DNA of 64,000 nt from a virus. Positions 1,080 through 62,359 of the stretch are shown here, one piece after another. The notes beneath the pieces are model-generated. The model saw only the letters and a program-made list of their open reading frames with translations. It did no database searches and was not told the origin of the DNA. The stretch covers positions 55,045 to 119,044 of the IMG/VR virus record IMGVR_UViG_3300042503_002645. One strand, 5' to 3'. The stretch's first letter is position 1, and each line of letters begins with the position of its first letter. Made by a program: the position numbers and the translations under genes.

Positions 1080-2066
1080 GTGGAACTGGTAGAGAACCCG
1101 TACGTTTCTGATTTCACCAAGGCGACGCTCGAGCAGTTTGGCTGGAAGGTCGGCGACGCCTTTCCAGCAACGCTCGGCGCGCTGCTGCTGCAGTTCAAGG
1201 AAACGGCGGCGCCCTCGTCGCGCACCGACGTGCTGGTGGACAGCGCGGGCCTCAGTCCGGCGCAGATTGCGGAGGTGCGCGCACTGCTGGCCGAGGCCAA
1301 ACGGGTGGCGGCCAACCGCGATAAGACGGAAGCGGTCGAAGCGGAAACGCAGAACATGTCTCCGGAAGTCGCGGCGCTCTACAAGACGCTTGAGGATGCC
1401 GGGCCGGAGATCGTCGACGACCGGGAAGCCCCGCCGCCCCCGCCGCCTGCTGCGCCCCAGACTCCCGCGCCGCCTGCCCCTGAACCCGCGCCTGCGGATG
1501 CCCCGGCAACCTCGGCGCCCATGGTGATCCTGCCGTTCTGCCCGCGCTGCGGCTGGGACATGCGGCAGAAGTTCGAGGTCGAGGTCACCGACAACGACAA
1601 GCAGGAGTTTCTGGCGTCGACCCTCGGTGGCCGCCGGTTCCAGCGCCGGTTTGATATCTTTGGCGGCAAGCTGGTGCTGGTCTTCCGGTCGATGCTGGCC
1701 GAAGAAAACCGTCTGATCATGCGGCAGCTCGTGCTCGACCAGGCCTCGCAGGACATCGTCACCGAGGACGAGTGGTTTCTTCGTCTCATGGAGTACCGCC
1801 TGGCTTGCTCGCTGGAACTCATGCTTGACGGAAACGGCAAGCCGCTGCATACCGTTCCGGAGCTGTCGCAGTTCCCGCACTCGCCGCCGCCGGACAAGCC
1901 ACTGCAAACAGCCCTGGTGGGCCTGCGCGAGTTCGTGAACAACACGATCTTGCCGCACGAGGTGACCCGGCGCATGGTTGGGCAGCAGCTGCGGTATTTC
2001 CAGCGGCTCGTTGAAGCCATTGAGGCTATGGCGCTCGAACCAAGTTTTTGGCACGGGATCGGGTAG
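1080..2066 (+). CDS. Putative tail assembly chaperone (gpG-like) with a CPRC knuckle and Pro-rich linker
   Basis: AAGGAGG SD then GTG at 1080. Lies two genes upstream of the tape measure; ends in a T-run (AGT TTT TGG). Confidence 0.55.
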   Translation: MELVENPYVSDFTKATLEQFGWKVGDAFPATLGALLLQFKETAAPSSRTDVLVDSAGLSPAQIAEVRALLAEAKRVAANRDKTEAVEAETQNMSPEVAALYKTLEDAGPEIVDDREAPPPPPPAAPQTPAPPAPEPAPADAPATSAPMVILPFCPRCGWDMRQKFEVEVTDNDKQEFLASTLGGRRFQRRFDIFGGKLVLVFRSMLAEENRLIMRQLVLDQASQDIVTEDEWFLRLMEYRLACSLELMLDGNGKPLHTVPELSQFPHSPPPDKPLQTALVGLREFVNNTILPHEVTRRMVGQQLRYFQRLVEAIEAMALEPSFWHGIG

Positions 2067-2455
2067 CAGCACTGATGGTGCGGGCTGCTGCGGCGGGAGT
2101 GGTCGACTACTCCCGCGCCGATCCCCAAGACGGTAAGTGGAGAATCAAGCACCGGCTGCTGCTGCAAGAACTCGAGCGGCAGGAGAACTACAAGCTGCTC
2201 GACGCGGTCCACCGGCAGTGGCTCAGCCATGTGTCGCACGGGCACCTTGTCGACGAGAGCTACCAGAACGTTAAAACGCACGCAAACGAAACGCTAGAGG
2301 CCCTGGAAGCCAACCTTTTCCCGTGGGCCGTGATCCCAAAACCCCAGGGTGAAAAAGATACAATAAGTCCCGACGCACAAATCGCGATCGAGAAGTACAA
2401 GCAGTATCGAGCCAGCTTGCAAAACGGCGAAGACAGCGATGCCCAACCCACTTGA
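2048..2455 (+). CDS. Putative gpT-like chaperone extension (-1 frame of the upstream gene)
   Basis: Overlaps the end of the previous ORF in the -1 frame at TTTTTG, has no clear SD, and directly precedes the tape measure. Confidence 0.55.
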   Translation: MARDRVAALMVRAAAAGVVDYSRADPQDGKWRIKHRLLLQELERQENYKLLDAVHRQWLSHVSHGHLVDESYQNVKTHANETLEALEANLFPWAVIPKPQGEKDTISPDAQIAIEKYKQYRASLQNGEDSDAQPT

Positions 2456-5400
2456 TCCATTTTCCGGGGGTATGTTTCGGGTGCCGCACTACGGCCCGGG
2501 CCAGTCTGCGTCGATGATGCAGGACCCCATGTCGACAATGATCATGTTGTTCGGCATGCCGATTCTGCAGCAGCAGCTGGGCGGGCGCGACAAGTTCTTG
2601 CCGCACCTCACGCCTAACCAGGCGTTGATGGACCAGTTCATGGCCTCGCAGTACCAGCGAGCAAACATGAACGCCACTCTTGCCGCGTCCCAGGCCGGGC
2701 AGGCGGCGGTGAGCAACCGGGTCGCCGGGCTTATGTCCATGATGACCGGGCAGCCCGTAACGCCCCTCAACCGGGAGCAGTCGGACAACATCGCCGGGGT
2801 CATTAACAACCCTGTCGTAAAGATGGTCTTGGGTCAGATGATCGGCCCGGACAACCTCGAAGCGGTCATGTTCGGCCGCCACGGCGACCCGAGCGCGCTG
2901 GCCGGTGCTGTGGGCCGGACGGGCTTCTTCCGCCAGGACCCCATGGGCGGGCAGCGGATGACGGCGAAATCCCTGGAAGAGTTCACAAAGTCGATTCACG
3001 CCAACCTGTACGGCGAGGGCGCCGACGTCGATCAGATGCGCGGCTTTATGGCCGGGCAGGCCGGGCAGATGTTCGAGAATCTGTTCCAGCGCGGCATGCT
3101 CCCCCAGAGCATCGGCGCCCTGACGCCTGCGGAGCGAGTGCGCGCCATCGGCGACGAGGCCCGGCGAGATGACGCCACGATGAACCGGCTGGCCGAGGAA
3201 ATGGCGCGCACCGAGCTGATGCAAAGCACGGAACTGTTTGACGGCCGTCGCTTCGACGAAGTCACCGAGCAAGAGCGCAAAACTATCCTCGAAGGGCGGC
3301 TGCCGACGTACCGCGGCCGCGTCGATGACACGATGCGGAAGATTGACGAATTCCGCAACAACGACCCACGCGCGTCGTCCGTCGAGGACATCGAGAAAAG
3401 CGCCGGGTTTGACTCCCTGGCGCGGAACGTTGACGGCGTGAAGGCCGCGAACAAGGTGAAAGAGTTCGCGGGCGCCGTGTCCGCCGTGCGCGAGATCTTC
3501 GGCGACAACGGCAATCCGAACGCCCCAATGCCTGCGCTGTTGGCAGCCCTGGACCAGCTCACGCAGGGCACGATGGCGCAGATGAGCACCGGCAAGGTTG
3601 AGAACACGCTGCGCCAGATGCGGCTGGCTGCTAAGGATGCCGGAATCGGCATGGAGCAGCTCATGGGCATGTCGGGCGAGATTAGCGCCTACGGCGACAC
3701 GCTTGGCATTGCGCGCCCGATCTCGCTGCAGAACACGGTGAACGCCGCGTTGATGACGCAGGCGATGCGGCAGGCCGGAAGCTTTGACAAGCCCGTCTTC
3801 GGCCGCATGGACCAGGCCACGGCGTCGCGCGAAGCGGCCATGCGTATCCAGCAGGGAGACGCGTCGGGCGTGGGCAAGACGCTGGCATCCATGGCCCGTG
3901 CCGTCGCAGAGAACCCGACGCAGTACGCGGGCACCGAGGTCGAGGCGCTTGTAAGCGCGTACAACAACGGTCAGGAAACGTACAACTTCGACGGCAAGAC
4001 CGTGAACCTGGCGCAGCTGGCGGGCGTGGGCGGCGCTCCGGCGCTGGCCGAGTTGTTCACGCGGCCTGAGAACAAGGGCAACATGGCCACGCTGGAGATG
4101 TTCTCCTACGACCAGACGACGCAGCGCTACATGAAGCCAGGGTATGCGGTGCTGGCGCAGCGTTTTCAGCTCCAGCGCGACATGGCCAATTCGAATTTGG
4201 GCGGCGCGATCATGGACCTGGTCGACGCCAAGGGTTTCGAGAACGTGGCGGCCGGACTGGGCATTCCGCTAACCGATCCGGACGCCGAGCGCTTCGGTTT
4301 CGGCAAGATGTTCGCAAGCGGCCTGGCCGACGTGATCCTCAGCGAAACGGGAAACATGAACCCGGAGGAGCGCGTCGACTACCTGATGAAGGACAACCGG
4401 GTCGGGCGCATGCTCGAGCAGCAGTTCGTCGCGGCGGGGTACACCCCAGACGAAGCCAAGCGGCGGGCAGAGGCGTCAATGCCGCTGGTGATCGGAAACA
4501 CGCCCGAGGAGCAGCGGGACCGGCTGGGGCGGTTCCTGTCGGCTGCAGACGTGGACGCCCAAGCTATTACCGGTCGTTCGCTGGCGGCCAACGCTCAAAT
4601 GCAAAGTCCAGCTGTCCAGGCGAATTACGTGCGAAACCAGCAGCGCTCAGAAGCGCGGTCGGAGCGTTACCGGGCCATGGCCATGGGCAACGAATCCAGT
4701 CTGCTCCAGCGCGTTTTCGAGGAGGTCGACAAAGTCTCCCAGGGCGAGACGTTTAGCCTGGAGCGCGTGGCCAACGTGCTCAGCGTTGCGGGCATGGAGC
4801 AAAAGTACGCCGCGGGCATTGCCGCGGGGCTCGAGTCGGCCTACGGCGAACGGGCCAAATTGTTTGTCTCTAAGCCTGAAGTGGATGACCTCAAGGCGCG
4901 CGCCGAGAAGGGCGACCAGGCGGCGATCAAGCAGCTCAAGTTCATGACCGGCGTTAAGGACGGCACCGAGGTCGTCTCGGCGGACGACATCAGCACCAAG
5001 CTCGGCCTTAAGTCGAACGAAGAAATCAACGACATCTACAAACGGCTCGTTGACGCGGGCGAAACAGACACGGCCAAGCAAATCACGGCGCTCTCCACCG
5101 CGGCGGGCATCGAGAACGTGGCGGGCGTGCTCGACCCGGACAAGGATCAGATCACGCAGGCGCAGCTTTCCAATCTGGCCGAAGGTACAGTTGGCCGGGT
5201 GTTCAAGGGGAGCACCGTCGAAGAGCAACGAGCCAGCCGAGACCGCGCCCGCGAAATCGAAACTTACACGAACGCGGTCTACAACGCGGCCGGGCTCGAG
5301 ACCGCCGCTGGCAGCCTGGCGACGGAGGCCGCGTCTGCGCGCAAGCTATCCGAGCCGCAAACAAAGGAGCTCCGCGAGCAGTACGCCAAGGCGCTGCAAG

Positions 5401-6539: not shown

Positions 6540-7343
6540 ATGATCAACCACGCACGCACCCTGTTGCTGAACGTACCCGGCGCGACGAGCAGCCACGCTG
6601 CCGTCGGCGAGGAGTACATTCCGCCGACGTACGCGCCGCTCCAGGAGCCGTCCTACACCCAGGCCGTGCGCCGCACGCTGCTTGGGACGTCGCCGGACCG
6701 GTACTTCCTGAACTTCCGTGCGCGGGAGCTGATGCATAACATTCACCAGACGGAGCTGGCCGAGTACGTCTACGCGCTGGACCCACGGGTGACGTACTGG
6801 CCGGAGGTGGACACGCCTTTCCTGGGCGCCGGGTCAAAGATATCTATTGCACGCGTCGCCGGGGCAGGCAACAGCCGCTTGGTCGTCGTGGGCCAGCCAG
6901 TTGCCGACAACGGCCGCGGTCGGGCGCTGCGCGAGTACGATGTCGAGGTAGACGCGACCAACCTGACTGTCTCGGCGGTGCTCCTCCGCGGCGAGCCACG
7001 CGCGGCTGAAACCGCGCCGCTGGCCACGGTCGACGGTATGTCGGCGCCGGTGCGCGCACCGCGCAGCCAGCTTTCCGTTAAAGTGGCATTGCCCGAGACT
7101 GGCGACCGCTGGCGGTTGACTGCGCTGGCCCGGCCCGAGCCCGCGATCACCACGCTACTACCGATCCTGGAAATTCTGGGCGAATCGGTGTTTCTTGGGT
7201 TGTTCGGCGTCGGTAACGCTGAGCCGTACAACACCTTCAAAAACCTGTGGCTCGACCACCCCGATCCAGCGTACCGGTTGGGCGGTCTGACCATGGCGTT
7301 GATTTACCGCACGAACGACATCAGGAACGGTATCAATGTCTAG
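6540..7343 (+). CDS. Hypothetical virion protein
   Basis: Tightly packed ORF in the tail operon with consistent codon bias. Confidence 0.6.
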   Translation: MINHARTLLLNVPGATSSHAAVGEEYIPPTYAPLQEPSYTQAVRRTLLGTSPDRYFLNFRARELMHNIHQTELAEYVYALDPRVTYWPEVDTPFLGAGSKISIARVAGAGNSRLVVVGQPVADNGRGRALREYDVEVDATNLTVSAVLLRGEPRAAETAPLATVDGMSAPVRAPRSQLSVKVALPETGDRWRLTALARPEPAITTLLPILEILGESVFLGLFGVGNAEPYNTFKNLWLDHPDPAYRLGGLTMALIYRTNDIRNGINV

Positions 7344-10795: not shown

Positions 10796-12439
10796 ATGGC
10801 CCTGGAAATCGGCAGCCTGTCGGAGCTGAATGCAGCGCAGGTCGACGCGATGTTTGCGACGTTCACGCAGCTCATGAAGGAGCGCCATCCCGAGGTCGAG
10901 TTGACCCGCGGCGTGTTCCATGACCTGGTCGTTTACTTCAATGCTGTCCTGAATGCCTCGGTCCGCGAGAACATTTCCCGGGTGCTGGCCAGCAACAGCC
11001 TGCTGGCTATCTCCAGTAACCCGGAGCTGGCCGACGATGCCTTGGTGGACAAGGTGCTCTCCAACTACAACCTGGCCCGCGACGCCGGAGCGCAGGCCGT
11101 GGGAGAGGCCACGCTGGTGTTTAACCTGAACACGCAGACTTCGATCTCGGCCGCCACGGTATTTTCCGCGGACGGCATTCAGTTTCAGCCTACGCAGACG
11201 TTCACCGCCCTGCCGACCGGTTCGATCGCCGCGGACGACAGCCAGCGGGTGATGATCCCGGCGGGCGACGGATCATACGTCATCAACATCCTAATGCGTG
11301 CCGTCTCGGTGGGGACGGCCGGTAACATCCGCCGCGGCACGAAGCTCATTCCTGACAACATCATTAACAACACCACGCAGGCGTTCGCGGCCACGGACTT
11401 CGTGAACGGCGCCGAGCCGCTCACCAATGTCGAGTACATCAGCAAGCTCTCGGCGGGCCTGGCCTCCAAGGCGATCGGCGGTCGGCAGAACTACATCGCG
11501 CAGATCCGAAACCAGGCCGCGTTCACGAACATCCCCCATCTGTCGATCATCGGCTGCGGTGACCCTGAGCAGCAGCGGGATCAGCACAGCCTGTTCCCCA
11601 TCTCCGGCGGCGGCAAGATCGACATTTACACGCAGACGCATTCCGCCGCCCAGGAACGCGAGCATCTGCGCGAGGCGGTGTACGTCGGCCCGGGCACAAA
11701 CGGCACGATCTGGCAGGTCGTGCTGGGACGTGACGCCGCGCCGGGTTTCTACGAAGTCGTGCGCGTGGCCAAGCCGCTCGCCACCGCGGACACCGGTTAC
11801 GCCGTGGTGCAGGACTCCCGCAACTTTGACCTGACGGACCTGGACTTTGTGCCAGATATCGTCAGCGTCGCGGAGGGCGCCTACACCCGTTACCAGACGG
11901 CCGTGATTCGCTTCGAGGACACGGACACGCTTCCCGGGACGCTCGTTCCCCAGGTGAGCCGCGCGTTCTACTCCGTAACGACCGCAGGCCTGCCGCTCAT
12001 CAACGAGCTACAGGATTACCTGGCTGACCGGGACGTGCGCAGCCGTGCCGCCGACGTGCTGGTCAGGGCGGCCGTTCCCTGCTTCACAAAGATATCTTTC
12101 GAAATCCGCAAGGCCGCGAACGACCCGGCCATCGACACAGCGCCCATCAAAACCGCCCTGGTGGCGGCTATCCGCGAGGTCGGCTTCACCGGCCAGCTCC
12201 ACGCGTCGACCATCTCGAGCGTCGTGCACCGGTACCTTACAGGCCGGGCGGCGCTGGGGGCGATCGACATGTTCGGCCGCATCCGGCGCCCTGACGGCAC
12301 AACGCAGTACGTCCGCGACAACACCCTGCTGCAGATTCCCGACGACCCGGCCCGCCTGGTGACGGGGCGCACGACGGCGTTCCTGGTGGGCGAAGACGAC
12401 ATCACGATTTCCTTTGTCGCCGCGGGCTTCACGAACTGA
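10796..12439 (+). CDS. Baseplate J-like protein
   Basis: 'VDKVLSNYNLARDAGAQAVGEATL', 'AVSVGTAGNI' and 'FVNGAEPLTNVEY' are J-family features. Confidence 0.8.
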   Translation: MALEIGSLSELNAAQVDAMFATFTQLMKERHPEVELTRGVFHDLVVYFNAVLNASVRENISRVLASNSLLAISSNPELADDALVDKVLSNYNLARDAGAQAVGEATLVFNLNTQTSISAATVFSADGIQFQPTQTFTALPTGSIAADDSQRVMIPAGDGSYVINILMRAVSVGTAGNIRRGTKLIPDNIINNTTQAFAATDFVNGAEPLTNVEYISKLSAGLASKAIGGRQNYIAQIRNQAAFTNIPHLSIIGCGDPEQQRDQHSLFPISGGGKIDIYTQTHSAAQEREHLREAVYVGPGTNGTIWQVVLGRDAAPGFYEVVRVAKPLATADTGYAVVQDSRNFDLTDLDFVPDIVSVAEGAYTRYQTAVIRFEDTDTLPGTLVPQVSRAFYSVTTAGLPLINELQDYLADRDVRSRAADVLVRAAVPCFTKISFEIRKAANDPAIDTAPIKTALVAAIREVGFTGQLHASTISSVVHRYLTGRAALGAIDMFGRIRRPDGTTQYVRDNTLLQIPDDPARLVTGRTTAFLVGEDDITISFVAAGFTN

Positions 12440-17587: not shown

Positions 17588-19129
17588 ATGAGCTGCGACG
17601 ACTTCATTATTTCGCCGCGGGGCCGAGCGGGCATTGGCGTGAATCAGCCGCAGAGCGGGCTGGACTACCCGCTTGTCGCGCCCTCCGCGGACATTAGATA
17701 TCTAATCGCCGACTTCTACCTGGCGTACGACGACCCGCACTTCTACAGGGCTGCCATCCCCGAGCGCGTCCATCCGCTGCGCATCAAGTGGCTGTACGGC
17801 GTCGGCTGCGAGGCTGCCAGCGCGCCGGGCTGGGCGCCGACGCCCGTGCACGCCGCGGACATTATCGTGGTGGACGCCGAGGAGAACGTCGTCTTCGACT
17901 CGACGCAGCTCATCGCCGCCCGTGGCGATCCGGAATACTCGAGCTTTCGCCAGCGCTCCTGGGGCGACGACTACGAGATCTACGAGTGGATCGGCAGCGA
18001 GGCCGTTTGTCGCCTCGTCGTCTACAAGACCTGGCCGCCGTCTTCGAGCACTGCCATTGACGACGAATGGGCGCGGCGAAACTGGCCCGTGCATTTGGCG
18101 CCTGAGAACGCCGTCCTGGACGAGCGCGCCGTGTACAAGCTGCCGCGCCGTCTGCGGTCGCTGCGCGTCGGGGCCACGCCGACCGGGCTCGCGTTCCGGC
18201 AAACCGGCGTGGTGCTCGCCGAGGGGCACAACATGGAGATCACCGCAGCCGCGCCAGGCCGCGTCGGCGCGCGGCGCAACACGAACATCACGCTCGCCGT
18301 CATCCCGGGCACCGGGACCGGCAAGTACGAGGACTGCCCCGAGGACGAACCGACTAGCCCTATCCTGCAAATCAACGGCGTGTCACCGCGCGAGGGTGGC
18401 GATTTTCTCCTGTCCGGAGCTGACTGCATCTACATCAGGCAGCCGACCGAGCTTGTGGGCGACCGTGCCCGCCCGCTCCGCGTGGGCGGTTCGGCCGCGC
18501 TGGCGATCAATACTGACTGCCCGGCCTGCTGCGACTGCCCTGATTACGCCGCCGTTGCGCTCTACATGAATCGCGTGGCGGCGCTATACGCCGGTGTCGG
18601 CCAGCAGGCGCATCAGGCCAAGCTGCTCCACGAGGGCAACATCGACCGCTGGGTCGAGCAGCGCGATTGCCGCCTGCAGCGACCGCTTCGCGTGCTCATG
18701 ACGCCGCAGAACTGCCCGACCGTAGACGTCGTGATCATGTACTGCAACCAGTGCCAGCAGTGCGCCGAGGACGTCTCCCTGGCCGTTTCGTTCAGTGCGT
18801 TCCCGGCGCCCGAAACGGTCGAGGTCGTCTGCGGCTACACAACGCTGACCGCGCCAGGTTACCCCGGCGTGAATTACAAGCTACAAGGTACATACCCGAA
18901 CTTCACGGCGCAGTTGCCGCCGATCGACGTCGGAAACTCTGCGTACGTGAAGTTCCGGCTGCGGTTCCTACCGAAAACGGCGCCATATGCCGTCACCGCG
19001 ACGCTGACCGGAACGGACGCCGGAGACGCAGTCCGGGCGGGGTGTGAACTTACGAACCCGAGTGCGTCCGCGACGACCACGGTCACGCTAAAATGCAGCG
19101 CCACCGGTGAAACCCTGCAGAACTGTTAA
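17588..19129 (+). CDS. Virion protein, paralog family member 2
   Basis: 'LDYPL', 'ILQINGVSP..GGDFLL', 'CPACCDC'. Confidence 0.65.
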   Translation: MSCDDFIISPRGRAGIGVNQPQSGLDYPLVAPSADIRYLIADFYLAYDDPHFYRAAIPERVHPLRIKWLYGVGCEAASAPGWAPTPVHAADIIVVDAEENVVFDSTQLIAARGDPEYSSFRQRSWGDDYEIYEWIGSEAVCRLVVYKTWPPSSSTAIDDEWARRNWPVHLAPENAVLDERAVYKLPRRLRSLRVGATPTGLAFRQTGVVLAEGHNMEITAAAPGRVGARRNTNITLAVIPGTGTGKYEDCPEDEPTSPILQINGVSPREGGDFLLSGADCIYIRQPTELVGDRARPLRVGGSAALAINTDCPACCDCPDYAAVALYMNRVAALYAGVGQQAHQAKLLHEGNIDRWVEQRDCRLQRPLRVLMTPQNCPTVDVVIMYCNQCQQCAEDVSLAVSFSAFPAPETVEVVCGYTTLTAPGYPGVNYKLQGTYPNFTAQLPPIDVGNSAYVKFRLRFLPKTAPYAVTATLTGTDAGDAVRAGCELTNPSASATTTVTLKCSATGETLQNC

Positions 19130-20694: not shown

Positions 20695-21477
20695 ATGTCG
20701 GGCGCCCGCATCCTTTACCCCCAGTTTCGCGACCAGCAGGCGGACTCTCGCTATCCGTTCGCTGACCGCGCCACGCTGGTGTCTCGCGAGCGACAGCTCG
20801 AGATCGGCCGCGACACGTTCATTGACGCCGCGCTGTACGCCATCGGCGGCGGGCGGCAGGCGTACATTTCTGCGGTGGTGGTCACGCCGCAGCTGATCAC
20901 GATCCGCATCGGTGACGTCGAGACGCGCGAGCGCGCCAGCGCCAGCTTCAATCCGCTGCAGCTCCCCGAAGACGGCGTGCTGCAGGTGTTTGATATCTAT
21001 GACCGCCCGGCAGGCATGCTGCTCTCGACCCCGCTCGCCCTGGCCCGGTTCTCGGGCTGGCCCGCCGAGACGCACAGCTTTGCCCAAGCGGCGACCGAGT
21101 TTGTCGCCTCGGTGGTCATTCCGGCCCGCGAGCCGGGTGTGCGGGCCCTGGTCGCGGACGACGGCGCGCTGCTCACCGGGGACGTCTGGCTCGTCGGCGG
21201 CCGGGGCGTCGTGGTCAGGAAGGAAGACGAGCAGACGATTCGCGTGGACGTGATCGGAGAGCCGCTGTTCAATCGTTTTCTGTGCGACCCAGTGCAGCGC
21301 TTCCAGCCGAAGACGCATCTGCGAACCATCACGGTCGACCGCGTGACCTGCGGCCCGGACGTGTACGGCAACTTTAACATCACGGCAAACGGCCACGCCG
21401 CGGCAGACACGGTGCTGCGAATCTCCGCCCAAGACGGAAACGTTAGAATAGACACCATCGGCCGAAAGGTGGTATAG
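20695..21477 (+). CDS. Virion protein, paralog family member 4
   Basis: 'QADSRYPF', 'LRTI...GPDVYGNFNI'. Confidence 0.65.
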   Translation: MSGARILYPQFRDQQADSRYPFADRATLVSRERQLEIGRDTFIDAALYAIGGGRQAYISAVVVTPQLITIRIGDVETRERASASFNPLQLPEDGVLQVFDIYDRPAGMLLSTPLALARFSGWPAETHSFAQAATEFVASVVIPAREPGVRALVADDGALLTGDVWLVGGRGVVVRKEDEQTIRVDVIGEPLFNRFLCDPVQRFQPKTHLRTITVDRVTCGPDVYGNFNITANGHAAADTVLRISAQDGNVRIDTIGRKVV

Positions 21478-35342: not shown

Positions 35343-37977
35343 GGCGTCGTTACCTGTATCTTTAGTCCGCCGACACAACCATCTCAGCGCCCTGTCGGCT
35401 CTGGGCATTCTGCCGGAAAAGCCCGCGTTTCCAGCGGTCGTCGATTGTCCGTTCTGCCAGCAACCTCAACTGTACTTGTTCGATGACGTGGTGACAGACG
35501 GTATCTGGACGCACTGCGAAGCCTGCCGTGCGCATGGAGATATCATAACCTGTGGCGCGTTAATCTGGAACAATAGCCGCGCCGAGGCGCTGACGCGGCT
35601 GGTAGACCTGGGTGCAGCCAGTCAAGGCGAAGCCGATCGGCTGTCCGGAGACTATTTCCGGGCAATAAATCGGCTGGAAGCGGCCGAGGCGTTCTGGAAT
35701 CTGGCACGCGAGCAGATCTGGAACCACCACGACGACGTTATCGCGTGCCGTCAGCGCGAGCTAGGGTTTGATAACACGATCGACGCCTGCGCCGATGTTG
35801 TTGGCGTGGCGCATCCCGATCAAGTCGCCGAGTTCTGCCGCGCCGTCGGCCGGGCCGTACCACCGCGCATGCGTGAACACGGTCCCAGCCTGGTCCTGCC
35901 GTACTACGACTTGCCCGGGCGGCTCACGGGCGTACTGCTCGTCCAGTACAACGACGATTTCATGTCGCGGCGCACGTTTATCGCGCTGCAGGGCTGCCCA
36001 AAACGCCGGGCGGACGCCGGGTACTTCATGCTCAACACGGTTCTGCTGCCCTGCAATCCGGCGCTGCGCGACTCGTACTTCGTCTCCGACGACCCGTTCT
36101 GGGTAATCCGCGCGCAGATGGCGCAGCGGAAAGCGGGCCTGACGGCGCTGCCGCTGGCGGCCAGCTATTCTGGTCCGGAGGCCGTGAGCACCGGGCTGAA
36201 CTGGCAATCGTTCGCGCCAACGCCCCGGTTCTTCCACAGCGCGCTTCTGACGCCGGATGTTATCTCGCAGGCCTGCACGGCCAAAGGTTACGTCTGCGTC
36301 CTACCCAACCAAAGCGTTGAGTCGCGGGCCACGCCGGTGCGCAACATGCAGCGCCTGGCCGCAATACGGCGGCAGGCGCAAACCTGGCAGGCGGCGCTCG
36401 AGTCGGCACTGGCGCACACCAACGAGACAGCTGCGCACTCGTTCATGTCCAAACTGACCATCGCGCTACCCCGGCTGCAGTACTTTTTCCAGAATCGCAA
36501 GCACGATCTCTCGCCCGAGTTCTGCGCGCGCCTGCTGACACAGATCGAGGCGGCACCTGGGCTGCCGACCAAGGTCTACAAGAAAGCAACCATCATCGAG
36601 CGCGACGGGTGTTGGTGGACGCATACCAACCACCAAGTCTGCAACGCTCGGCCGCGCATTTACAAGATCGTGCACTCCGACCAGGGCGAGCGGATGTACG
36701 TCGGCACGGTCGCCATTAACGGCCAGGAGCTGGATTTTGTCGACAGCGCCACGCGTATCGAACGCGTCGGCCTGCTCGCCTTTGCGGCGCAGCACGCTGC
36801 ATCGCACGGGCAACTGCTCCTGTTCGACCGGCACTGGAACGTGAAGAGCCACCTGGTTGCAATGCGGCTGCACGAGCCGGAAATCGTGCATATCTCCGGC
36901 GACGCAGGCTGGAACGAGCAGACCAGTCAATTCTGCTTCAGGAACTACGCGATCAATAACGACGGCAGCGTTACCTCCTGCCCATATCCGCAGATCCAGG
37001 CCGCGCTGCCGAACTTTCCCGAGCCGATCGAGATCGCGCCGGTGACGGTGCATCCGCTGCTGACGCCGTCCTACGAGAACGCCACCATCTGGACCAGTTT
37101 CGCTGCGATCGCCGCCGACTTGCTGGCGCCGGTCCTCAACCAGCAGGCGACGGCCACGGCTGCGACCGGCAGTACGTTCAACACGGCCTTGGAGGTCGGG
37201 TTGAGTCTCGACTGCACCCAGCACCGTTGCTCCAGCTCGCAGCGGCAGAACGCGTCCAGCAGCGTCATTACGCACCTTAAGAACGTCCGCTGGCCGCTTT
37301 TTACCGCCCACGCCTTCGACGACCTGATGCTGTGCCGCACCGTGTTGCGCGTCCCCAACGGGCCGATCTTTGCCCGCTTGGCCGACCTGACCGCGCACCT
37401 GGCGCCAGGCTACGGCTGGCAGGTTATCCGCGGTCCCGGGCTGGACGTTGTGCCCGACCTTTCGGCCCTACGGTACATCCTACCGACGTACATCCAGCGC
37501 GCGCTGACGCGGCGAATGCAGCTCGCGACGCAGAAAGAACACCTGACAACGGCCGTGCTCCAGGACCTCTCCGGGTGGCTCAAAGATATCTATGGCGCAA
37601 CGTTCAACCTGGCGTACGCGACCAACAAGCTGGTCACCCCCGCCCAGGCCCACGAGGCCTTGATGGCGGCGATCAACATCGGTATCACCGCGGGAAAGCT
37701 CGATGTACTCCCCCGGCCACGCCGGAAGGACCAGCAAGGCAACTACCTGCTCCGACAAAAAACAAACTGGTGGTTGAATCAGAAGGCCATAGATCGTTAC
37801 TGTATTTTTGCTGGCGGAGTGATTCCGAATTGGGCGGCAGTTACCGAGTTACTGGCGCAGCGCGGTTTGCTGCACGATGAACAGGTCGTGAACGGCATGC
37901 CGGGCTTGCTGGTCGACAAAGAATGGTGCGACGCTTTCTGGAGCGATTACACAACCAATGCACGCGAACTTGGATAG
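35341..37977 (+). CDS. Large protein with an N-terminal Zn-finger (primase zinc-binding-like); putative replication protein
   Basis: 'CPFC...HCEAC..HGDII' resembles a primase Zn-binding domain; no clear TOPRIM or Walker motifs seen. Confidence 0.55.
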   Translation: MASLPVSLVRRHNHLSALSALGILPEKPAFPAVVDCPFCQQPQLYLFDDVVTDGIWTHCEACRAHGDIITCGALIWNNSRAEALTRLVDLGAASQGEADRLSGDYFRAINRLEAAEAFWNLAREQIWNHHDDVIACRQRELGFDNTIDACADVVGVAHPDQVAEFCRAVGRAVPPRMREHGPSLVLPYYDLPGRLTGVLLVQYNDDFMSRRTFIALQGCPKRRADAGYFMLNTVLLPCNPALRDSYFVSDDPFWVIRAQMAQRKAGLTALPLAASYSGPEAVSTGLNWQSFAPTPRFFHSALLTPDVISQACTAKGYVCVLPNQSVESRATPVRNMQRLAAIRRQAQTWQAALESALAHTNETAAHSFMSKLTIALPRLQYFFQNRKHDLSPEFCARLLTQIEAAPGLPTKVYKKATIIERDGCWWTHTNHQVCNARPRIYKIVHSDQGERMYVGTVAINGQELDFVDSATRIERVGLLAFAAQHAASHGQLLLFDRHWNVKSHLVAMRLHEPEIVHISGDAGWNEQTSQFCFRNYAINNDGSVTSCPYPQIQAALPNFPEPIEIAPVTVHPLLTPSYENATIWTSFAAIAADLLAPVLNQQATATAATGSTFNTALEVGLSLDCTQHRCSSSQRQNASSSVITHLKNVRWPLFTAHAFDDLMLCRTVLRVPNGPIFARLADLTAHLAPGYGWQVIRGPGLDVVPDLSALRYILPTYIQRALTRRMQLATQKEHLTTAVLQDLSGWLKDIYGATFNLAYATNKLVTPAQAHEALMAAINIGITAGKLDVLPRPRRKDQQGNYLLRQKTNWWLNQKAIDRYCIFAGGVIPNWAAVTELLAQRGLLHDEQVVNGMPGLLVDKEWCDAFWSDYTTNARELG

Positions 37978-40830: not shown

Positions 40831-41274
40831 ATGAATTTCGAAATCAGAATCAAAGATATCAATGCGTTGTCGCCAACCGAGGTGACCACGATCTACAACC
40901 AGCTGTCGCATCCGGCATCTGGTTTGGTCGATTCAATCCGCCCAGAGCTGGAGCGTCGCTATATCAAGCCGACGCCCGGACCGCACCCGCCGATGTGGCT
41001 GGCGATGGTCTGGAAAAACGGCGCGTTCGTGGCCTGGGTCGGCACGCGCCCATGGCCTGAGACGTTCAAAAGCCAGCCGGTCACGGCGCAGACCATCGAG
41101 TGCTTCACGGCGCCCGATGCGCGCCGCCACGGGCTGGCCCGCCTGGGGCTGCAGGCGTTGATCTCCGCTGGCCTAATCAACCGCGACAGGATCGTTTCAG
41201 TCTATGCTGCGGAGGTAGTCAAGCTGGCGCAGCAGTGCGGCTGCAAGACTGTGGTTTTGTGTCGCGCCTCTTAG
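40831..41274 (+). CDS. GNAT-like acetyltransferase
   Basis: 'ECFTAPDARRHGLARLGL' matches acetyl-CoA-binding motif A; GGAGG SD. Confidence 0.6.
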   Translation: MNFEIRIKDINALSPTEVTTIYNQLSHPASGLVDSIRPELERRYIKPTPGPHPPMWLAMVWKNGAFVAWVGTRPWPETFKSQPVTAQTIECFTAPDARRHGLARLGLQALISAGLINRDRIVSVYAAEVVKLAQQCGCKTVVLCRAS

Positions 41275-42408: not shown

Positions 42409-42614
42409 AACGCTACCACGAAGAACAACACATCGTCGCGCGGCGGGAGCGGGAGTACAGCGCGGCATACGAGCACGCCCCGCGCACACCTGGCCGATTT
42501 CGCAAGACGCACATCGGCTGCAACCGGGCGAGCTGCCAAGTGTGCCACCCCGAAAAGTTTCCCCGTCGAACGCCCACACGCCAGGAACAACGGCCGTGGG
42601 GCGACGGGTATTGA
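42405..42614 (+). CDS. Small protein with a C-x4-C-x2-C-H motif
   Basis: ATGA coupling; 'GCNRASCQVCHPEK'. Confidence 0.55.
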   Translation: MKRYHEEQHIVARREREYSAAYEHAPRTPGRFRKTHIGCNRASCQVCHPEKFPRRTPTRQEQRPWGDGY

Positions 42615-42641
42615 TATCTATTCACACAGGAGAAAGTCGAG

Positions 42642-44964: not shown

Positions 44965-45008
44965 ATAGATATCTATCAAGCGGCACACCCATCTTCAGGA
45001 GTCACCGA

Positions 45009-49057: not shown

Positions 49058-49505
49058 AGACGCGCACCACTTCGAGACCGGGGCTGTTCGTTCTGCTGAC
49101 CGAGACGCTGAGCGCTGGGATTTGATATCCCCAGTTGGCTTGAAGGCTTTGGCGCGCACGTACGCCGAGGGCGCGGCCAAGCGCGGCGCATCGAACTGGG
49201 AGAACGGGATGCCTGTCACCGATTTGCTGAACCACGCAATCGGCCACATCTACGATTTCCTGTCGGGCGACCGCAACGAGGATCACCTGGCGCATGCCGC
49301 CTGGAACGTGATCGGCGCGATCCACAGCCTCGAGGTGTGGCCGGAATTGAATGCGGGCTTGCTGCGGGGGCCAGGCTGCACTTGCCCGCCCGCCGCCGCG
49401 AAGCCCGCGGCCAACGGTGAAAAGATATCTTTGGGCCCGAACGAAGTCAGGCAACGGCTGGAGCAGCTCACGAAGAAGACGCCAGCCTACGAAAGCTCGA
49501 CCTGA
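49050..49505 (+). CDS. dATP/dGTP diphosphohydrolase domain protein (DUF5664-like)
   Basis: 'FETGAVRS...RWDLI...LA..YAEGA.K.G..NWE.GMP...EDHLAHAAWN'. Confidence 0.8.
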   Translation: MSEDAHHFETGAVRSADRDAERWDLISPVGLKALARTYAEGAAKRGASNWENGMPVTDLLNHAIGHIYDFLSGDRNEDHLAHAAWNVIGAIHSLEVWPELNAGLLRGPGCTCPPAAAKPAANGEKISLGPNEVRQRLEQLTKKTPAYESST

Positions 49506-53764: not shown

Positions 53765-55258
53765 ATGAGCCTGCCGCAGCAGATCAAGGAGCTCGTTTGC
53801 GCCGGTTTTTCCGGCATCTGGGTCGACACCCAGGAATCTGATGATGCCATCGCTTCGGTCAAGAAGCTCTGCGAGGAGCGCGACTGGGGTTTCGAAGTCT
53901 GGGACTTGGATCGCCAGCTGTACAACCACAACGCCACCGCCGCCCCCGGCCCGGTGCAGGCGCTGCGCTGGCTCGATACGCCCGACGCGCGGACCAAGAG
54001 CACCCAGCTGCTCGTCCTGAAGAACTTCCACAAGTACCTGCCCAACCCAGAGGTGATGCAGGTCCTGCAAAACCGGATCGTCACGGGCAAGGCCATCGGC
54101 CAGCACGTCGTGGTGCTCTCGCCGGTGCTCCAGCTCCAGCCCGAGATCGAAAAGCTGTTCACCGTGGTGCATCACGAGTTGCCCACCCGCGAGCAGCTCA
54201 CGACGATCGCCAACGATCTGTTCACCGGCGAGGGGAACACGTTCGAGCGGCCAACCGACGAGGTGATCGCCAACGTCGTCGATGCCGCCTCGGGCATGAC
54301 GCGGCTCGAGGCCGAGAACGCGTTCGCGCTCTCGATGGTCCGGCACAACACGCTCAACCCGGACGTGATCTGGAACCTCAAGGCCCAGACGCTCGAGAAG
54401 GCGGGCACGCTCAGCCTCTACCGTGGCGACGCGACGTTCGACGCCCTCGGCGGCCTGGACAACCTCAAGCAGTTCTGCATCCGCGCCATGAAGCGCCAGG
54501 GCGAGGCGGACCCAGAGAAGCGGCCGCGGGGCGTGCTGCTCCTGTCGCCGCCGGGCTGCGGCAAGTCGCAGTTCGCCAAGGCGCTGGGCAACGAGGTCGG
54601 GCGGCCCACGGTCGTCCTGGACTTCGGCTCGCTCATGGGCAAGTTCGTCGGCGAGTCGGAGGGCAACATTCGCCGGGCGCTGGCCCTGGTGGACGCCATG
54701 GCGCCCTGCATCCTGTTTTGCGACGAGATCGAGAAAGGCCTCTCGGGCGTCGGCTCGAGCGGCCAGACCGACTCCGGCGTGACGGCGCGCCTGTTTGGCA
54801 CGTTCCTCACGTGGCTCAATGACCACAAGAGCGACGTGTTCTTCATCGGCACCTGCAACGACGCCAGCAAGCTGCCGCCGGAGTTCACCCGCGCGGAGCG
54901 TTTCGACGGCGTGTTCTTCGTGGACCTGCCCGGCGCGGCAGCGCGGAGCTACATCTGGGAGCTCTACCTCAACAAGTTCGGCATCGACAAGACCCAGCCC
55001 AAGCCGGACGACAGCAACTGGACGGGCGCCGAGATCAAGTCGTGCTGCCGCCTGGCCGCGCTTCTGGACGTCTCGCTCGTCGAGGCCGCGCAGAACGTGG
55101 TCCCAGTGGCCGTGACCAACGCTGATTCCATCGCCAACCTGCGGACCTGGGCCGACGGCCGCTGCATCTCGGCCGATGCCAGGGGTTACTTCAAGAAGGC
55201 GGCCAAGGCAATCACCGAGCCCGCCACCCGGCGCCGCGTTGCGCCCAGCTCGAATTGA
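53765..55258 (+). CDS. AAA+ ATPase, Ycf46-like
   Basis: Walker A 'PPGCGKS', Walker B 'LFCDEIEK', SRH 'LPPEFTRAERFD..FFVDLP'. Confidence 0.9.
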   Translation: MSLPQQIKELVCAGFSGIWVDTQESDDAIASVKKLCEERDWGFEVWDLDRQLYNHNATAAPGPVQALRWLDTPDARTKSTQLLVLKNFHKYLPNPEVMQVLQNRIVTGKAIGQHVVVLSPVLQLQPEIEKLFTVVHHELPTREQLTTIANDLFTGEGNTFERPTDEVIANVVDAASGMTRLEAENAFALSMVRHNTLNPDVIWNLKAQTLEKAGTLSLYRGDATFDALGGLDNLKQFCIRAMKRQGEADPEKRPRGVLLLSPPGCGKSQFAKALGNEVGRPTVVLDFGSLMGKFVGESEGNIRRALALVDAMAPCILFCDEIEKGLSGVGSSGQTDSGVTARLFGTFLTWLNDHKSDVFFIGTCNDASKLPPEFTRAERFDGVFFVDLPGAAARSYIWELYLNKFGIDKTQPKPDDSNWTGAEIKSCCRLAALLDVSLVEAAQNVVPVAVTNADSIANLRTWADGRCISADARGYFKKAAKAITEPATRRRVAPSSN

Positions 55259-55269
55259 AAGATATCTTT

Positions 55270-58512: not shown

Positions 58513-58813
58513 CTGCGTGCCGTGGACAATCGAAGACATCGATGGGGACAACCCTCGCGGCGCGCCGGGCACGTTCGACTTCAACGTTTGGTACGAGTTG
58601 AATGCGCCGGAGTACGGCGCGCCGCAGATCGAGATTATCGGAGTCACCTGCACACGCGCAGAATTCAATGCAGCGCAAGACGAGCTAGTTGCCGCGCAAG
58701 ACAGAGAACAGCTGGCCGAGTGGTTTGATATCTATCTCAACACTCACCCTGATGAACTTGCGGCCATACAAGATCAAGCTCGCATCTTCTGCCATATCGA
58801 TCTTGTGAATTGA
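58505..58813 (+). CDS. Hypothetical acidic protein
   Basis: Overlapping GTG start; 102 aa. Confidence 0.5.
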   Translation: MSSCVPWTIEDIDGDNPRGAPGTFDFNVWYELNAPEYGAPQIEIIGVTCTRAEFNAAQDELVAAQDREQLAEWFDIYLNTHPDELAAIQDQARIFCHIDLVN

Positions 58814-61628: not shown

Positions 61629-61646
61629 TCGATAGATATCTTTGGC

Positions 61647-61680: not shown

Positions 61681-61721
61681 TCGGCCAGCCACCACACTAA
61701 CACACCACACTGGAGCCAACC

Positions 61722-62066
61722 ATGTCTCTCATGGATCTGCACGTCTACGTCAAATCCGCCAACGGGCAGACGCAGTTCACCATTCACAACTTCGAGCCGA
61801 CCGTGCGCGTGTCGGACGAAACACAGCATCCGGGCCCGGAATACAACTACATCACGCTGACGCATGGAAAGTATGCCGACCCGGTCACGACGACCGTGTT
61901 CATGAACTGCGCGGACGTGATCGCGATGTACGACAAGCTGACGCCCGTCGTCGCGCGATTTCGTGAACTCATGGCGGCAAAGCACTCTGCACCCGCCCCT
62001 GCCCTTGTCGCCCAGGAGACAACTGAATGCCCGACCGATTGCCCGACGTCACCCGCGTCCGTGTGA
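61722..62066 (+). CDS. Hypothetical protein
   Basis: GGAG SD. Confidence 0.6.
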   Translation: MSLMDLHVYVKSANGQTQFTIHNFEPTVRVSDETQHPGPEYNYITLTHGKYADPVTTTVFMNCADVIAMYDKLTPVVARFRELMAAKHSAPAPALVAQETTECPTDCPTSPASV

Positions 62067-62359
62067 GCGCTGACGACCTCAAAGATATCAATCCCGAGTC
62101 GGAACTCTACAAGCGCGCCAAGAGCGATCTTGACGAGTTTCCAGCGGGCGCCGCCTATCGGGAGTACGCGCGCGAGCGGCTCCAAGACGACGGCGAACTC
62201 GAGTTCGACTACGACGCTGTAGTCAGCCTCAGCGGCGAGCCCGGGGCGTACGTCATGGCTTGGGTCTGGATTGACGAGGAAGAGCTGCGCGAGGAAGGCT
62301 ACCTACCTGCCAACGACGCAGCCGAAAACGCGGAGGGCGCAGATGGCAGCGCGAGTTGA
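62027..62359 (+). CDS. Phage hypothetical protein ('GELEFD..AVVS.....GAYVMAWVW')
   Basis: AGGAG SD; phage motif. Confidence 0.65.
   Translation: MPDRLPDVTRVRVSADDLKDINPESELYKRAKSDLDEFPAGAAYREYARERLQDDGELEFDYDAVVSLSGEPGAYVMAWVWIDEEELREEGYLPANDAAENAEGADGSAS

Follow-up and report, generated by a model that had tools for sequence, protein, structure and literature searches.

A short AT-rich palindrome, WWWGATATCWWW, recurs about once per 4 kb along the chromosome of an uncultured lake phage, and the phage rewrites its own proteins to keep this sequence at such intervals. We read the sites as a genome-wide lattice of solitary docking sites for a homodimeric, sequence-specific phage protein that would act chromosome-wide, and give this reading a probability of about 0.6. 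The source contig (119,044 bp, 58% complete; G000 in the comparisons) holds 30 copies, of which 17 lie in the window, the whole stretch of 64,000 nucleotides analysed here; the enrichment noticed in the window thus continues in the rest of the contig. In 100 dinucleotide-preserving shuffles of the window 0.01 copies were expected, with a largest value of 1. The window has 30 GATATC cores where 4.94 ± 2.30 were expected, and 30 of the 78 AT-rich islands of the contig are this motif. In the ~200-kb genomes of the clade the lattice comprises 40-50 evenly spaced sites, mostly inside genes.

A recount of the preliminary description found all 17 coordinates and spellings exact. Its first three gaps (5186, 5252 and 5606 bp) were also correct, and no gap exceeds the 6.8 kb it gave, the largest in the window being 6775 bp. 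The other GATATC sites number 13 rather than about 12, and the GC content taken as 64% measured 57-65.5% per 2-kb bin and 62.3% over the contig. ORFs and gene placement were taken from crude GC3-based gene calls, by which 12 of the 17 window copies lie fully in ORFs, one overlaps a stop codon and four are intergenic; the preliminary description had placed 13 inside genes. Its use of all three frames was borne out. The lattice sites of the window, none assigned to a strand, are as follows.

1650..1661, TTTGATATCTTT, inside an ORF, F-D-I-F on + ORF 987-2066 (strand call uncertain because the gene caller picked the overlapping - ORF 1062-2072); retained in G006 and G007; Y-P/E-M/L/I-F/M/A, with 3-4 amino-acid differences, in G001-G005.
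6836..6847, AAAGATATCTAT, ORF 6540-7343, frame 2 (K-I-S); retained in G006 and G007.
12088..12099, AAAGATATCTTT, ORF 10796-12439, frame 2 (K-I-S, with the rare ATA codon); retained in G006 and G007; K-I-N in G001, and K-I-S through other codons in G002, G003 and G005.
17694..17705, TTAGATATCTAA, ORF 17588-19129, frame 1 (R-Y-L); retained in G006, G007 and G001.
20989..21000, TTTGATATCTAT, ORF 20695-21477, frame 0 (F-D-I-Y); retained in G006 only; Y-D-E-Y in G007, S-D-A-F in G001, L-D-S-Y in G002.
27764..27775, AAAGATATCAAA, ORF 27593-29485, frame 0 (K-D-I-K); absent from the aligned relatives, which have R-D-M-K, K-E-L-R and K-D-M-K.
28706..28717, AAAGATATCTTT, the second site in ORF 27593-29485, frame 0 (K-D-I-F); retained in G007, G001 and G002.
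33829..33840, ATTGATATCTTT, intergenic, with the start of ORF 33873-34166 32 nt on.
37582..37593, AAAGATATCTAT, ORF 35341-37977, frame 0 (K-D-I-Y); retained in G007 and G001; D-E-T-Y in G002.
40852..40863, AAAGATATCAAT, ORF 40810-41274, frame 0 (K-D-I-N); retained in G007, G001 and G002.
42610..42621, ATTGATATCTAT, intergenic, with ORF 42642-43397 20 nt on.
44965..44976, ATAGATATCTAT, intergenic, directly after the stop of ORF 44314-44964 and ending 32 nt before ORF 45009-45410.
49421..49432, AAAGATATCTTT, ORF 49050-49505 (dATP/dGTP diphosphohydrolase N-terminal domain), frame 2 (K-I-S); retained in G007 and G001.
55258..55269, AAAGATATCTTT, overlapping the last base of ORF 53765-55258 and ending 73 nt before ORF 55343-55795.
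58724..58735, TTTGATATCTAT, ORF 58493-58813, frame 0 (F-D-I-Y).
61632..61643, ATAGATATCTTT, intergenic, 4 nt past ORF 61071-61628 and 78 nt before ORF 61722-62066; retained in G007.
62081..62092, AAAGATATCAAT, ORF 62027-62359, frame 0 (K-D-I-N); the same place in G007 reads AAAGATATCAAA.

Selection acts on the DNA, as had been proposed, and the protein sequence has been changed to fit the motif. Within the ORFs of the contig there are 22 copies (16, 2 and 4 in frames 0, 1 and 2), and this enrichment survives 1000 shuffles of synonymous codons within genes, which gave 0.70 ± 0.77 copies and at most 4. The tetrapeptide X-D-I-Z is spelled as the motif in 16 of 25 cases against 0.19 expected from codon usage, and the codons used for this make up 1-29% of their families. 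At 9 of the 13 comparable in-ORF sites every relative that lacks the motif has different amino acids; the RNA polymerase site, for example, reads L-D-I-K here, E-D-I-K in four of five relatives and A-D-I-K in the fifth. Neither target duplications nor insertions were found at in-ORF sites, where the alignments are gap-free.

The site extends over 14-18 bp and is two-fold symmetric, with an invariant GATATC core, three A/T positions on each side and usually C/G outside, and the sequence logos are symmetric regardless of gene direction. Fully self-complementary flanks were found at 12 of 30 sites in G000, 20 of 49 in G001 and 14 of 40 in G002, against 10.0, 17.6 and 12.2 expected from shuffled halves (P = 0.22-0.30 in all three genomes). 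Base pairing is not the constraint, because the two arms vary independently. The half-site is spelled A-W-A-GAT in G000 and G001 and C-T-C-A-T-T-GAT on both arms in G002, that is, one sister lineage respells both arms symmetrically; site 4759 of G000 is found at the same place in G002, spelled TTTGATATCAAA.

The sites are retained in related phages 4 to 8 times above other 12-mers: 15 of 17 aligned sites in G006, 19 of 23 in G007, 14 of 22 in G001 and 4 of 15 in G002, against 16%, 11.5%, 8.2% and 7.3% of all aligned 12-mers under the identical rule. Compared with uniform placement, spacing was more even than chance in G000, G001 and G002, with coefficients of variation of the gaps of 0.59, 0.60 and 0.67 (P = 0.0016, 0.00005 and 0.004) and smallest gaps of 449, 561 and 700 bp (P = 0.032, 0.0007 and 0.0022). 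Site positions turn over between relatives, with gene order retained, and lost sites tend to be replaced nearby. In 8 of 8 genome pairs, which are not independent, lineage-only sites lay nearer to those of the partner than under a uniform null (P 0.0014 to 0.10), and between G000 and G001 6 of 13 lay within 1 kb against 1.6 expected. This result hinges on the definition of 'same place' (P = 0.054 in the median test under a 60-bp rule), and hot spots for site gain could mimic compensation.

The preliminary description had seen a cis-acting site for a dimeric protein covering the genome. That reading is the best supported, by symmetry, independent arms, respelling and even, solitary sites, although the binders then proposed are unsupported. 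The sites arose in place by point mutation and are maintained by selection on the DNA, and the reader is most likely a homodimeric, sequence-specific phage DNA-binding protein that has evolved together with the outer bases of its site. Position is free within a neighbourhood while density and evenness are kept; therefore, we infer that the protein acts on the whole chromosome. When bound, it may mark or organise the DNA, anchor loops, or load a factor that reaches over a few kb. That the lattice sites control single genes is unlikely.

The best candidate for the reader, still unproven, is a conserved protein of ~300 aa with a predicted ParB/Noc-type DNA-binding domain and no recognisable ParB CTPase domain; its gene falls in the portion of the genome missing from this contig. 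It is conserved in all five complete genomes (50-83% identity) and was found at 38 IMG/VR loci; a tblastn search of phage Arash, which is without the lattice, gave no match. The protein has a weak HTH_ParB match (E 0.0245, 12.4 bits) below the Pfam cut-off, and its profile matched no PDB sequence. With its AF2 model (pLDDT 66), all of the top 12 VIA-align rows were ParB/Spo0J/Noc DNA-binding domains (rmsd 2.7-3.9 Å over 100-126 residues) at Z 7.5-9.5, the next row having 5.8, where values under about 13 may reflect an arrangement common for helical models; Foldseek E-values were 0.18-1.7. The predicted homodimer scored 0.83 against 0.06 for the best control, with at least 70% of contacts shared between runs and pLDDT of at least 71. 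The mark it passed is reached by 20 of 30 solved one-chain pairs and 1 of 23 solved single chains, and the pass may stem from likeness to solved ParB dimers. The gene, with a well-conserved DNA-binding region, also occurs in members of the clade in which the lattice of the 20-kb locus is blurred or A/T-flanked GATATC is absent from it altogether; therefore its presence does not track the sharpness of the lattice. As to the binders suggested earlier, the Xis-like one is an HTH_17 protein that, among five genomes searched, was found only in G000, and the two paralogues at 51275-52449 of the window are poorly conserved (one with 40% identity in G001 only, the other with 58% and 36% in G001 and G002) and gave no Pfam match.

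Alternatively, the sites would be substrates of a symmetric enzyme, either a restriction-like endonuclease or nickase, whose breaks would serve recombination-dependent replication or packaging, or a site-specific DNA methyltransferase; we regard this as unlikely. In its favour, GATATC belongs to the classical recognition sequences of type II enzymes, these genomes are rich in proteins of unknown family, and among the gene products of the relatives are RecA, a Rad50/SMC-like ATPase and a RuvC-like protein (recognised by eye only). Site-specific nicks do exist in T5, phiKMV-like phages and tf, but as described there they are asymmetric, one-stranded and uneven (PMC3517423). With palindromic sites such as these, cleavage of both arms would break the genome into ~4-kb pieces. 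Neither a D12 nor an N6_N4 methyltransferase was found in the five genomes searched, GIY-YIG was found in G000 only and PDDEXK_5 in G000 and G001 only. Moreover, a requirement of 12-18 bp is long for a methyltransferase, and an enzyme offers no obvious reason for even spacing.

It is unlikely that the sites are transcription signals (promoter, terminator or pause) for the multisubunit RNA polymerase of the phage or for that of the host. The phage does encode a bacterial-type RNA polymerase, and a search of four lake-phage genomes detected no Sigma70_r2 factor, of which the cultured relative Arash has two; promoter recognition thus needs another explanation. The motif forms an AT island within GC-rich DNA, and 8 of the 30 contig sites fall outside ORFs where non-coding sequence makes up 9%, with three sites exactly 32 nt before a start codon. 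However, the other 22 sites lie in ORFs, their relative positions range from 0.01 to 0.85 and the following start codon may be as far as 2.4 kb off, and distances to start codons are scattered in G001 and G002. Site and flanks are without asymmetry although 122 of the 137 called genes of the contig share the + direction, no second conserved element was found within 20 bp of the site, and positions turn over while gene order stays.

No likelier is a reader supplied by the host and exploited by the phage, for instance a nucleoid-associated protein or a segregation factor, with the differences in spelling reflecting different hosts. The phage-encoded reader is a candidate only, and the lineages avoid different restriction sites, so their hosts probably differ. 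On the other hand, G000, G001 and G002 all avoid GCCGGC completely (0 copies where 175-280 were expected). This points to similar hosts, although the spelling in G002 differs. Two bacterial bins that contain capsid genes of the relatives, and that may or may not represent hosts, have the motif at a density lower than that of the phage by a factor of at least about 90: none in the 6.0 Mb of one bin, and 15 copies, on small contigs, in the 5.3 Mb of the other. No support was found for the Planctomycetota host suggested initially.

Action of the palindrome through base pairing, as an RNA hairpin or DNA cruciform, is highly improbable. The 18-nt palindrome of G002 could form a 7-bp stem, and one conserved non-coding element has its site within a longer self-complementary stretch, but complementarity between the arms does not exceed that of shuffled halves in any of the three genomes, many sites, e.g. 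AAAGATATCAAA, are unable to pair in their flanks, and a cruciform needs more than twelve bases. That the array has no function and stems from biased mutation, an artefact of codon use or the traces of a small mobile element is scarcely credible, since nothing favours it beyond K-D-I-F/Y/K being an easy frame-0 reading, and it is contradicted by the synonymous shuffles, the retention and even spacing of the sites, the amino acids replaced to fit them and the lack of target duplications or insertions in ORFs.

The proposed docking lattice may be compared with several known systems. The localized single-strand interruptions of T5, phiKMV-like phages and tf also occur at a specific short sequence that recurs along the phage genome, and site and enzyme specificity may co-evolve (PMC3517423). 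These interruption sites are asymmetric, confined to one strand and uneven (one half of the tf genome carries 11 of 14), in contrast to the palindromic and evenly spaced lattice sites. The stoperators of Cluster A mycobacteriophages are likewise many copies of one site, bound by the repressor, that are spread over the genome of the phage and exert their effect at places other than promoters (PMC9283540, PMC6550527). They are, however, asymmetric, oriented with transcription and bound by the monomeric immunity repressor of temperate phages, whereas the lattice sites are palindromic and unoriented, and an integrase was found only in G000 among the five genomes searched.

Noc and its NBS sites combine dispersed palindromes with a dimeric reader that has a ParB-family DNA-binding domain. 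KorB and its OB sites on the IncP plasmid RK2 comprise short palindromes dispersed across the entire replicon and a dimeric ParB-family reader with kilobase-range sliding (PMC11790492). The candidate reader matches the ParB/Noc DNA-binding domains in predicted fold, but the sliding clamp of KorB and Noc is made by their N-terminal ParB CTPase domain, and this ParB_N domain was absent from all five genomes searched. The OB sites on RK2 are few and lie in regulatory regions, in contrast to the 40-50 even and mostly intragenic sites per ~200 kb here, whose reader is a candidate only.

The motif had been thought undescribed in phages, and no published description of it was found in the literature searched. 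An analogous array is already published: Corndog and its relatives, the Cluster O mycobacteriophages, have 17-bp dyad-symmetric repeats in more than 30 copies genome-wide, about a third of them in coding regions and most not at promoters (PMC4351075, PMC6439249). Those repeats differ in being of unrelated sequence (7-3-7), in genomes of about 70 kb that have no homology with this clade, and in being denser towards one genome end where the lattice is even; the Cluster O passages mention no rewriting of amino acids, lineage respelling or local turnover as seen here. In both systems many dyad-symmetric copies run through a GC-rich phage genome, unoriented with respect to transcription, and for the Cluster O repeats a dimeric protein and a process other than transcription initiation were predicted (PMC4351075, PMC6439249).

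Shuffling analysis of the window revealed 17 copies of WWWGATATCWWW, a GATATC core with three A/T bases on each side, against 0.01 expected (100 dinucleotide-preserving shuffles), and the coordinates of all 17 copies claimed in the preliminary description were found to be exact. GATATC itself occurs 30 times in the window (4.94 ± 2.30 expected). An IMG/VR phage contig of 119,044 bp (G000; 62.3% G + C, classed as linear, 58% complete by CheckV) has the window as its right-hand 64 kb, and the array was found to run over the whole contig: of its 48 GATATC sites, 30 are copies of the motif. Of 78 AT-rich islands on the contig (A/T at 10 or more of 12 bases), 30 are accounted for by the motif. A/T counts over the six flanking bases are bimodal: six at 30 sites, five at none, and four or fewer at 18; therefore the motif forms a discrete class of site. 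The consensus extends one base outward on each side, mostly C and G, giving a 14-bp palindrome. In all six lake-phage genomes GATATC was the top over-represented palindromic hexamer, and motif-derived 8-mers were the most over-represented 8-mers. The lattice of sites first noticed in the window is confirmed and extended here.

Genes were called crudely from GC3 periodicity, giving 137 ORFs, 122 of them on the plus strand. Twenty-two of the 30 motif copies on the contig lie fully within ORFs (16 in frame 0, two in frame 1 and four in frame 2), and when synonymous codons were shuffled within each ORF, 0.70 ± 0.77 copies were obtained (maximum 4 in 1000 shuffles), so that the enrichment stands against a codon-preserving control. 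The motif could be written into 25 X-D-I-Z tetrapeptides and is in fact written into 16 of them, where codon usage predicts 0.19; the codons involved are minor in their families (AAA 22%, GAT 25%, TTT 29%, TAT 19%, ATA 3% and TTA 1%). Thirteen in-ORF sites could be compared gap-free with motif-less relatives, and at nine of these the amino acid sequence differs in every such relative. At window site 1650, F-D-I-F is found here and Y-(P/E)-(M/L/I)-(F/M/A) in five relatives; the alignment has D/N-Y...G conserved in the plus frame, and the gene caller probably chose the wrong strand. The minus-strand calls at window 1062-2072 and 8993-9826 (pI > 11), both picks of the GC3 caller, are probably shadows of plus-strand genes at 987-2066 and 8936-9820. 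At a site in the RNA polymerase gene (contig position 29327, outside the window), L-D-I-K, with Leu specified by its rarest codon, is found in place of E-D-I-K in four relatives and A-D-I-K in one. Synonymous shuffles, rare codons and changed residues all support the earlier view that selection acts on the DNA rather than the protein. By the gap-free comparisons together with the amino acid changes, the lattice sites arose in place by point mutation and not by insertion. Intergenic sites are over-represented (8 of 30, for 9% of the sequence), as expected if non-coding DNA takes up a site at lower cost.

A bacterial-type RNA polymerase is encoded on the contig as a 1459-aa fusion of beta to the N-terminal portion of beta', as confirmed by Pfam domains, and the fusion was found in 28 IMG/VR loci at 72-89% identity. 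The nearest cultured phages are Salmonella phage Arash and three Vibrio phages (D69, D181 and D148), with only 33% identity in the polymerase. No Sigma70_r2 domain was detected in any of the four lake-phage genomes G000-G003, all of which encode the bacterial-type RNA polymerase. Arash has two sigma factors, and the available part of its description reports polymerase, sigma factor and helicase in purified virions. The Arash genome (OQ632216, 181 kb) has 89 GATATC sites against 46 expected and no copy of the motif, and its best palindrome, CTTATATAAG, has only 5 copies (0.04 expected), so there is no lattice to study in this phage; CTTATATAAG may be a regulatory site of Arash.

A host lookup with a 375-aa ORF (L002:2251-3375) against genome contigs found no relative. 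A capsid search found related genes (68%; 94-97% identity) on contigs of two bacterial bins, L109 (G010) and L110-L111 (G011), one of them titled uncultured Nannocystaceae bacterium; these could be a hint of the host or a binning artefact. GCCGGC is absent from G000, G001 and G002 (175-280 copies expected), CTCGAG, ATGCAT and AGGCCT are absent from G003-G005, and CAGCTG, AGATCT and AAGCTT are also absent from G005, a pattern that reads as strong restriction-site avoidance differing between subclades. An ORF with a dATP/dGTP diphosphohydrolase N-terminal domain (window 49050-49505), a dCMP deaminase elsewhere on the contig, and thymidylate and thymidine kinases in relatives point to remodelling of the nucleotide pool. 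No tRNA gene was found by ARAGORN, and the whole contig was without an Rfam match. A non-coding element of about 170 nt (contig L001:4720-4890, outside the window) is 88%, 80%, 79% and 78% identical in G001-G004, with a T-run at its end and no Rfam match. It contains a hairpin in which changes are compensatory across the five genomes; a lattice site lies in an insertion of about 31 nt in this element in G000-G002, and G003 and G004 lack this insertion.

The contig was compared with five complete relatives, G001-G005 (197-205 kb; terminal repeats in three of them), and with G006 and G007, both large fragments. A sharp lattice was found throughout the high-GC subclade, with 49 copies in 204 kb of G001 and 40 in 197 kb of G002; G006 and G007 have 40 copies each in 127 kb and 154 kb, and two further relatives, G008 and G009, have 14 in 38 kb and 19 in 87 kb. 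Strict copies are few in G003, G004 and G005 (8, 13 and 21), where the flanks are blurred, with many sites having four or five of six A/T bases, and the spacing is irregular. In alignments at 73-79% nucleotide identity, aligned G000 sites were kept at 15 of 17 places in G006, 19 of 23 in G007, 14 of 22 in G001 and 4 of 15 in G002, against 16%, 11.5%, 8.2% and 7.3%, respectively, of all aligned 12-mers kept by the same rule; retention is thus above background in all four relatives. The spelling differs between sister lineages: the half-site is A-W-A-G-A-T in G000 and G001, and C-T-C-A-T-T-G-A-T in both arms in G002, which gives an 18-bp palindrome, the core-adjacent base changing from A (80-92%) to T (86%). 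Contig site 4759 is found at the same place in G002 in the other spelling.

Gaps between sites were more regular than under uniform placement in G000, G001 and G002, with coefficients of variation of 0.59, 0.60 and 0.67 (P = 0.0016, 0.00005 and 0.004) and smallest gaps of 449, 561 and 700 bp (P = 0.032, 0.0007 and 0.0022). The sites are solitary, unlike operator clusters or iterons. Sites private to either member of a genome pair tend to lie near each other, the direction being the same in 8 of 8 pairs (P 0.0014-0.10, the pairs not being independent). Between G000 and G001, a private site of the other genome was found no more than 1 kb away for 6 of 13 private sites, where 1.6 were expected. 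This turnover signal gives moderate support to selection for one site per neighbourhood, and hot spots of site gain could mimic such compensating turnover.

The site and its flanks are symmetric despite nine in ten genes pointing one way, and no second conserved element was found within 20 bp of the sites. An RNA hairpin or cruciform would make the two arms pair. Fully self-complementary flanks were found at 12 of 30, 20 of 49 and 14 of 40 sites, and shuffled halves gave 10.0, 17.6 and 12.2; the two arms vary independently. What is constrained is thus the presence of A/T in each arm rather than pairing between them, and this counts against both structures. A promoter, whether of sigma-70 type or of a single element, would be oriented and placed at a set distance before genes; 22 of 30 sites lie in ORFs, at relative gene positions of 0.01-0.85, the next start codon follows at widely varying distances and asymmetry is lacking, all of which counts against promoters. 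An EcoRV-type restriction-modification target would be accompanied by a cognate adenine methyltransferase or else be avoided; D12 and N6_N4 methyltransferases were each found in none of five genomes, and GATATC is enriched, not avoided. The most economical reader would be a two-fold symmetric protein contacting each arm separately. The genome-wide cis-acting site for a dimeric protein proposed in the preliminary description is partly supported; the mechanism is one that we infer. From the sequence patterns, the array would be a chromosome-wide lattice on which a homodimeric reader docks.

The reader was sought among the encoded proteins. Pfam scans of 134 G000 ORFs, and of 108 ORFs of G001 lying beyond the G000 region, found no conserved classical regulator, and single scans at lenient E-value of 30 small, basic or site-adjacent ORFs gave nothing useful. 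Of 10 large structural proteins none had a PHROGs family, and among 44 ORFs a single 'transcriptional regulator' family was matched; screening all G001 ORFs for presence or absence gave too much noise, as shadow frames also gave matches. The ParB_N CTPase domain (PF02195) was found in none of five genomes at E ≤ 0.01 by a search that recovered it in 11 of 14 known genomes. The Xis-like protein, earlier named as a candidate binder, was rejected together with the integrase, HTH_17 being above cut-off in G000 only.

Integrase and Xis-like genes of the window, each found in G000 only of five genomes searched
49506-50417, minus strand, tyrosine integrase
50874-51137, plus strand, Xis-like HTH_17 protein

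The pair is a lineage-specific integration module, adjoining lattice site 49421. Recognisable nucleases were also rejected as readers, GIY-YIG being found in G000 only and PDDEXK_5 in G000 and G001 only among the five genomes searched. The GIY-YIG ORF (window 41275-42408; GC3 low, at 0.57) has no homologue in the relatives and resembles a homing endonuclease gene of recent insertion; it lies between lattice sites 40852 and 42610. A 107-aa basic protein (window 40289-40609) was found in sharp-lattice genomes only. Its AF2 model was all-beta (pLDDT 67); Foldseek gave nothing at E ≤ 0.001, the top row being an SH3b domain with E 0.13, and the ESM Atlas had no named look-alike (best score 0.87). 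The protein was dropped. A 213-aa basic protein (G001 39781-40422, minus strand) is conserved in four relatives at 74-82% identity; its start motif, judged by eye, is one that we take to resemble RuvC-type resolvases.

An HTH_ParB profile search gave a single sub-threshold match, in G003 (E 0.0245, 12.4 bits, below the cut-off). The candidate reader, a protein of about 300 aa with a predicted ParB/Noc-type fold (G001 44865-45818, minus strand; G002 73811-74737), has orthologues in each of the five complete genomes (50-83% identity) and was found in 38 IMG/VR loci of the clade. The G000, G006 and G007 contigs do not extend over the part of the genome that holds its gene, and in Arash tblastn gave no match. 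DUF1016_N matches all five orthologues (best E 8.2e-10), and a profile of the orthologues gave no match to PDB sequences. The AF2 model was all-helical (pLDDT 66, pTM 0.44). Foldseek matches were weak (E 0.18-1.7), with Noc, ParB and Spo0J making up most of the top rows. In VIA-align, the top 12 of 12 rows were ParB/Spo0J/Noc DNA-binding domains with Z of 7.5-9.5 (next row 5.8), values that helical models can reach by chance; rmsd was 2.7-3.9 Å over 100-126 residues, and one row covers all 116 residues of a Noc DNA-binding domain chain. A model of two copies scored 0.83 against 0.06 for the best control, a mark reached by 20 of 30 proteins solved as same-chain pairs and 1 of 23 solved as single chains. 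Agreement between runs was 70% of contacts or higher, with pLDDT of 71 or more; this pass may also reflect likeness to solved ParB dimers.

The predicted DNA-binding region of this protein is well conserved where clade loci have a blurred lattice or no A/T-flanked GATATC, which counts against it as the reader, and no residue could be linked to the A/T respelling. Candidate-bearing loci without A/T-flanked GATATC were searched for another lattice palindrome and none was found, the best, GTTGTACAAC, having 6 copies in 162 kb and forming no lattice. In three of five genomes the candidate gene has a lattice-type site 571-628 bp upstream, which may be mere positional conservation. On these models and comparisons, we put the chance that the ParB/Noc-type protein reads the lattice at roughly one in four, and regard it as a testable lead.

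An improbable but wider proposal is that the lattice and a CTPase-less ParB/Noc-type reader form a viral chromosome-marking system with co-evolving spelling, general in large phages. A homodimer would dock about every 4 kb and label the phage chromosome of about 200 kb as self; the docked dimer could, for example, bring in the RNA polymerase of the phage, which has no detected sigma factor, or could protect or condense the phage DNA during an attack on host DNA. Cross-reaction between sister phages would be prevented by co-evolution of spelling and reader. If true, sequence-encoded viral chromatin would be a general feature of large phages, as yet undescribed.

Phage genomes are commonly interpreted one gene at a time, and here the chromosome is the object under selection: a regular grid of a protein-sized site overrides codon preference and alters conserved RNA polymerase residues. 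If the array is a docking lattice, large phages would organise or label their DNA by sequence-encoded landmarks, for which no phage mechanism has been described. The symmetric respelling between sister lineages is a natural specificity-swap experiment, and the ParB/Noc-type candidate provides a concrete protein to test even though the phage is uncultured.

A literature search found no paper on the motif, in agreement with the preliminary description, nor on an evenly spaced palindrome in a jumbo phage. Cluster A stoperators (PMC9283540 and PMC6550527) are asymmetric and oriented with transcription, unlike the palindromic, symmetric lattice. They belong to temperate phages with an integration or immunity module; here Phage_integrase was found in one of five genomes (G000) and HTH_17 above cut-off again in that one only. 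Phage nick sites, in the portion available of PMC3517423, are asymmetric and on one strand, unlike a palindrome that is the same on both. In assembled contigs of four public DNA runs, no point at which molecules start or stop was listed, a result that weighs neither for nor against any reading.

By analogy, the nearest paradigm for the working mode may be a ParB-family reader on dispersed palindromes. Noc is such a reader, acting on NBS. These systems have a palindrome of 13-16 bp read by a dimer, and the lattice likewise has two-fold sites of 14-18 bp and a presumed dimer. KorB on the OB sites of RK2 is another ParB-family reader of dispersed palindromes, in the available text of PMC11790492. 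Unlike KorB and Noc, none of the five genomes has the PF02195 CTPase domain of the sliding clamp, and the lattice is therefore not assigned to the ParB/KorB/Noc family.

Among published systems, the lattice comes nearest to the 17-bp dyad repeat of Cluster O mycobacteriophages, unexplained since 2015. The available parts of PMC4351075 and PMC6439249 describe more than 30 copies, about one third in genes and not tied to promoters, with predicted dimer binding and a function unknown there. The lattice is similar in number, with 30 copies on the 58%-complete contig and 40-49 in complete relatives, and in lying partly in genes. Unlike the Cluster O repeats, as far as those accounts describe them, the GATATC lattice is evenly spaced, is written into genes at amino acid cost, is respelled between sister lineages and has sites that turn over locally.
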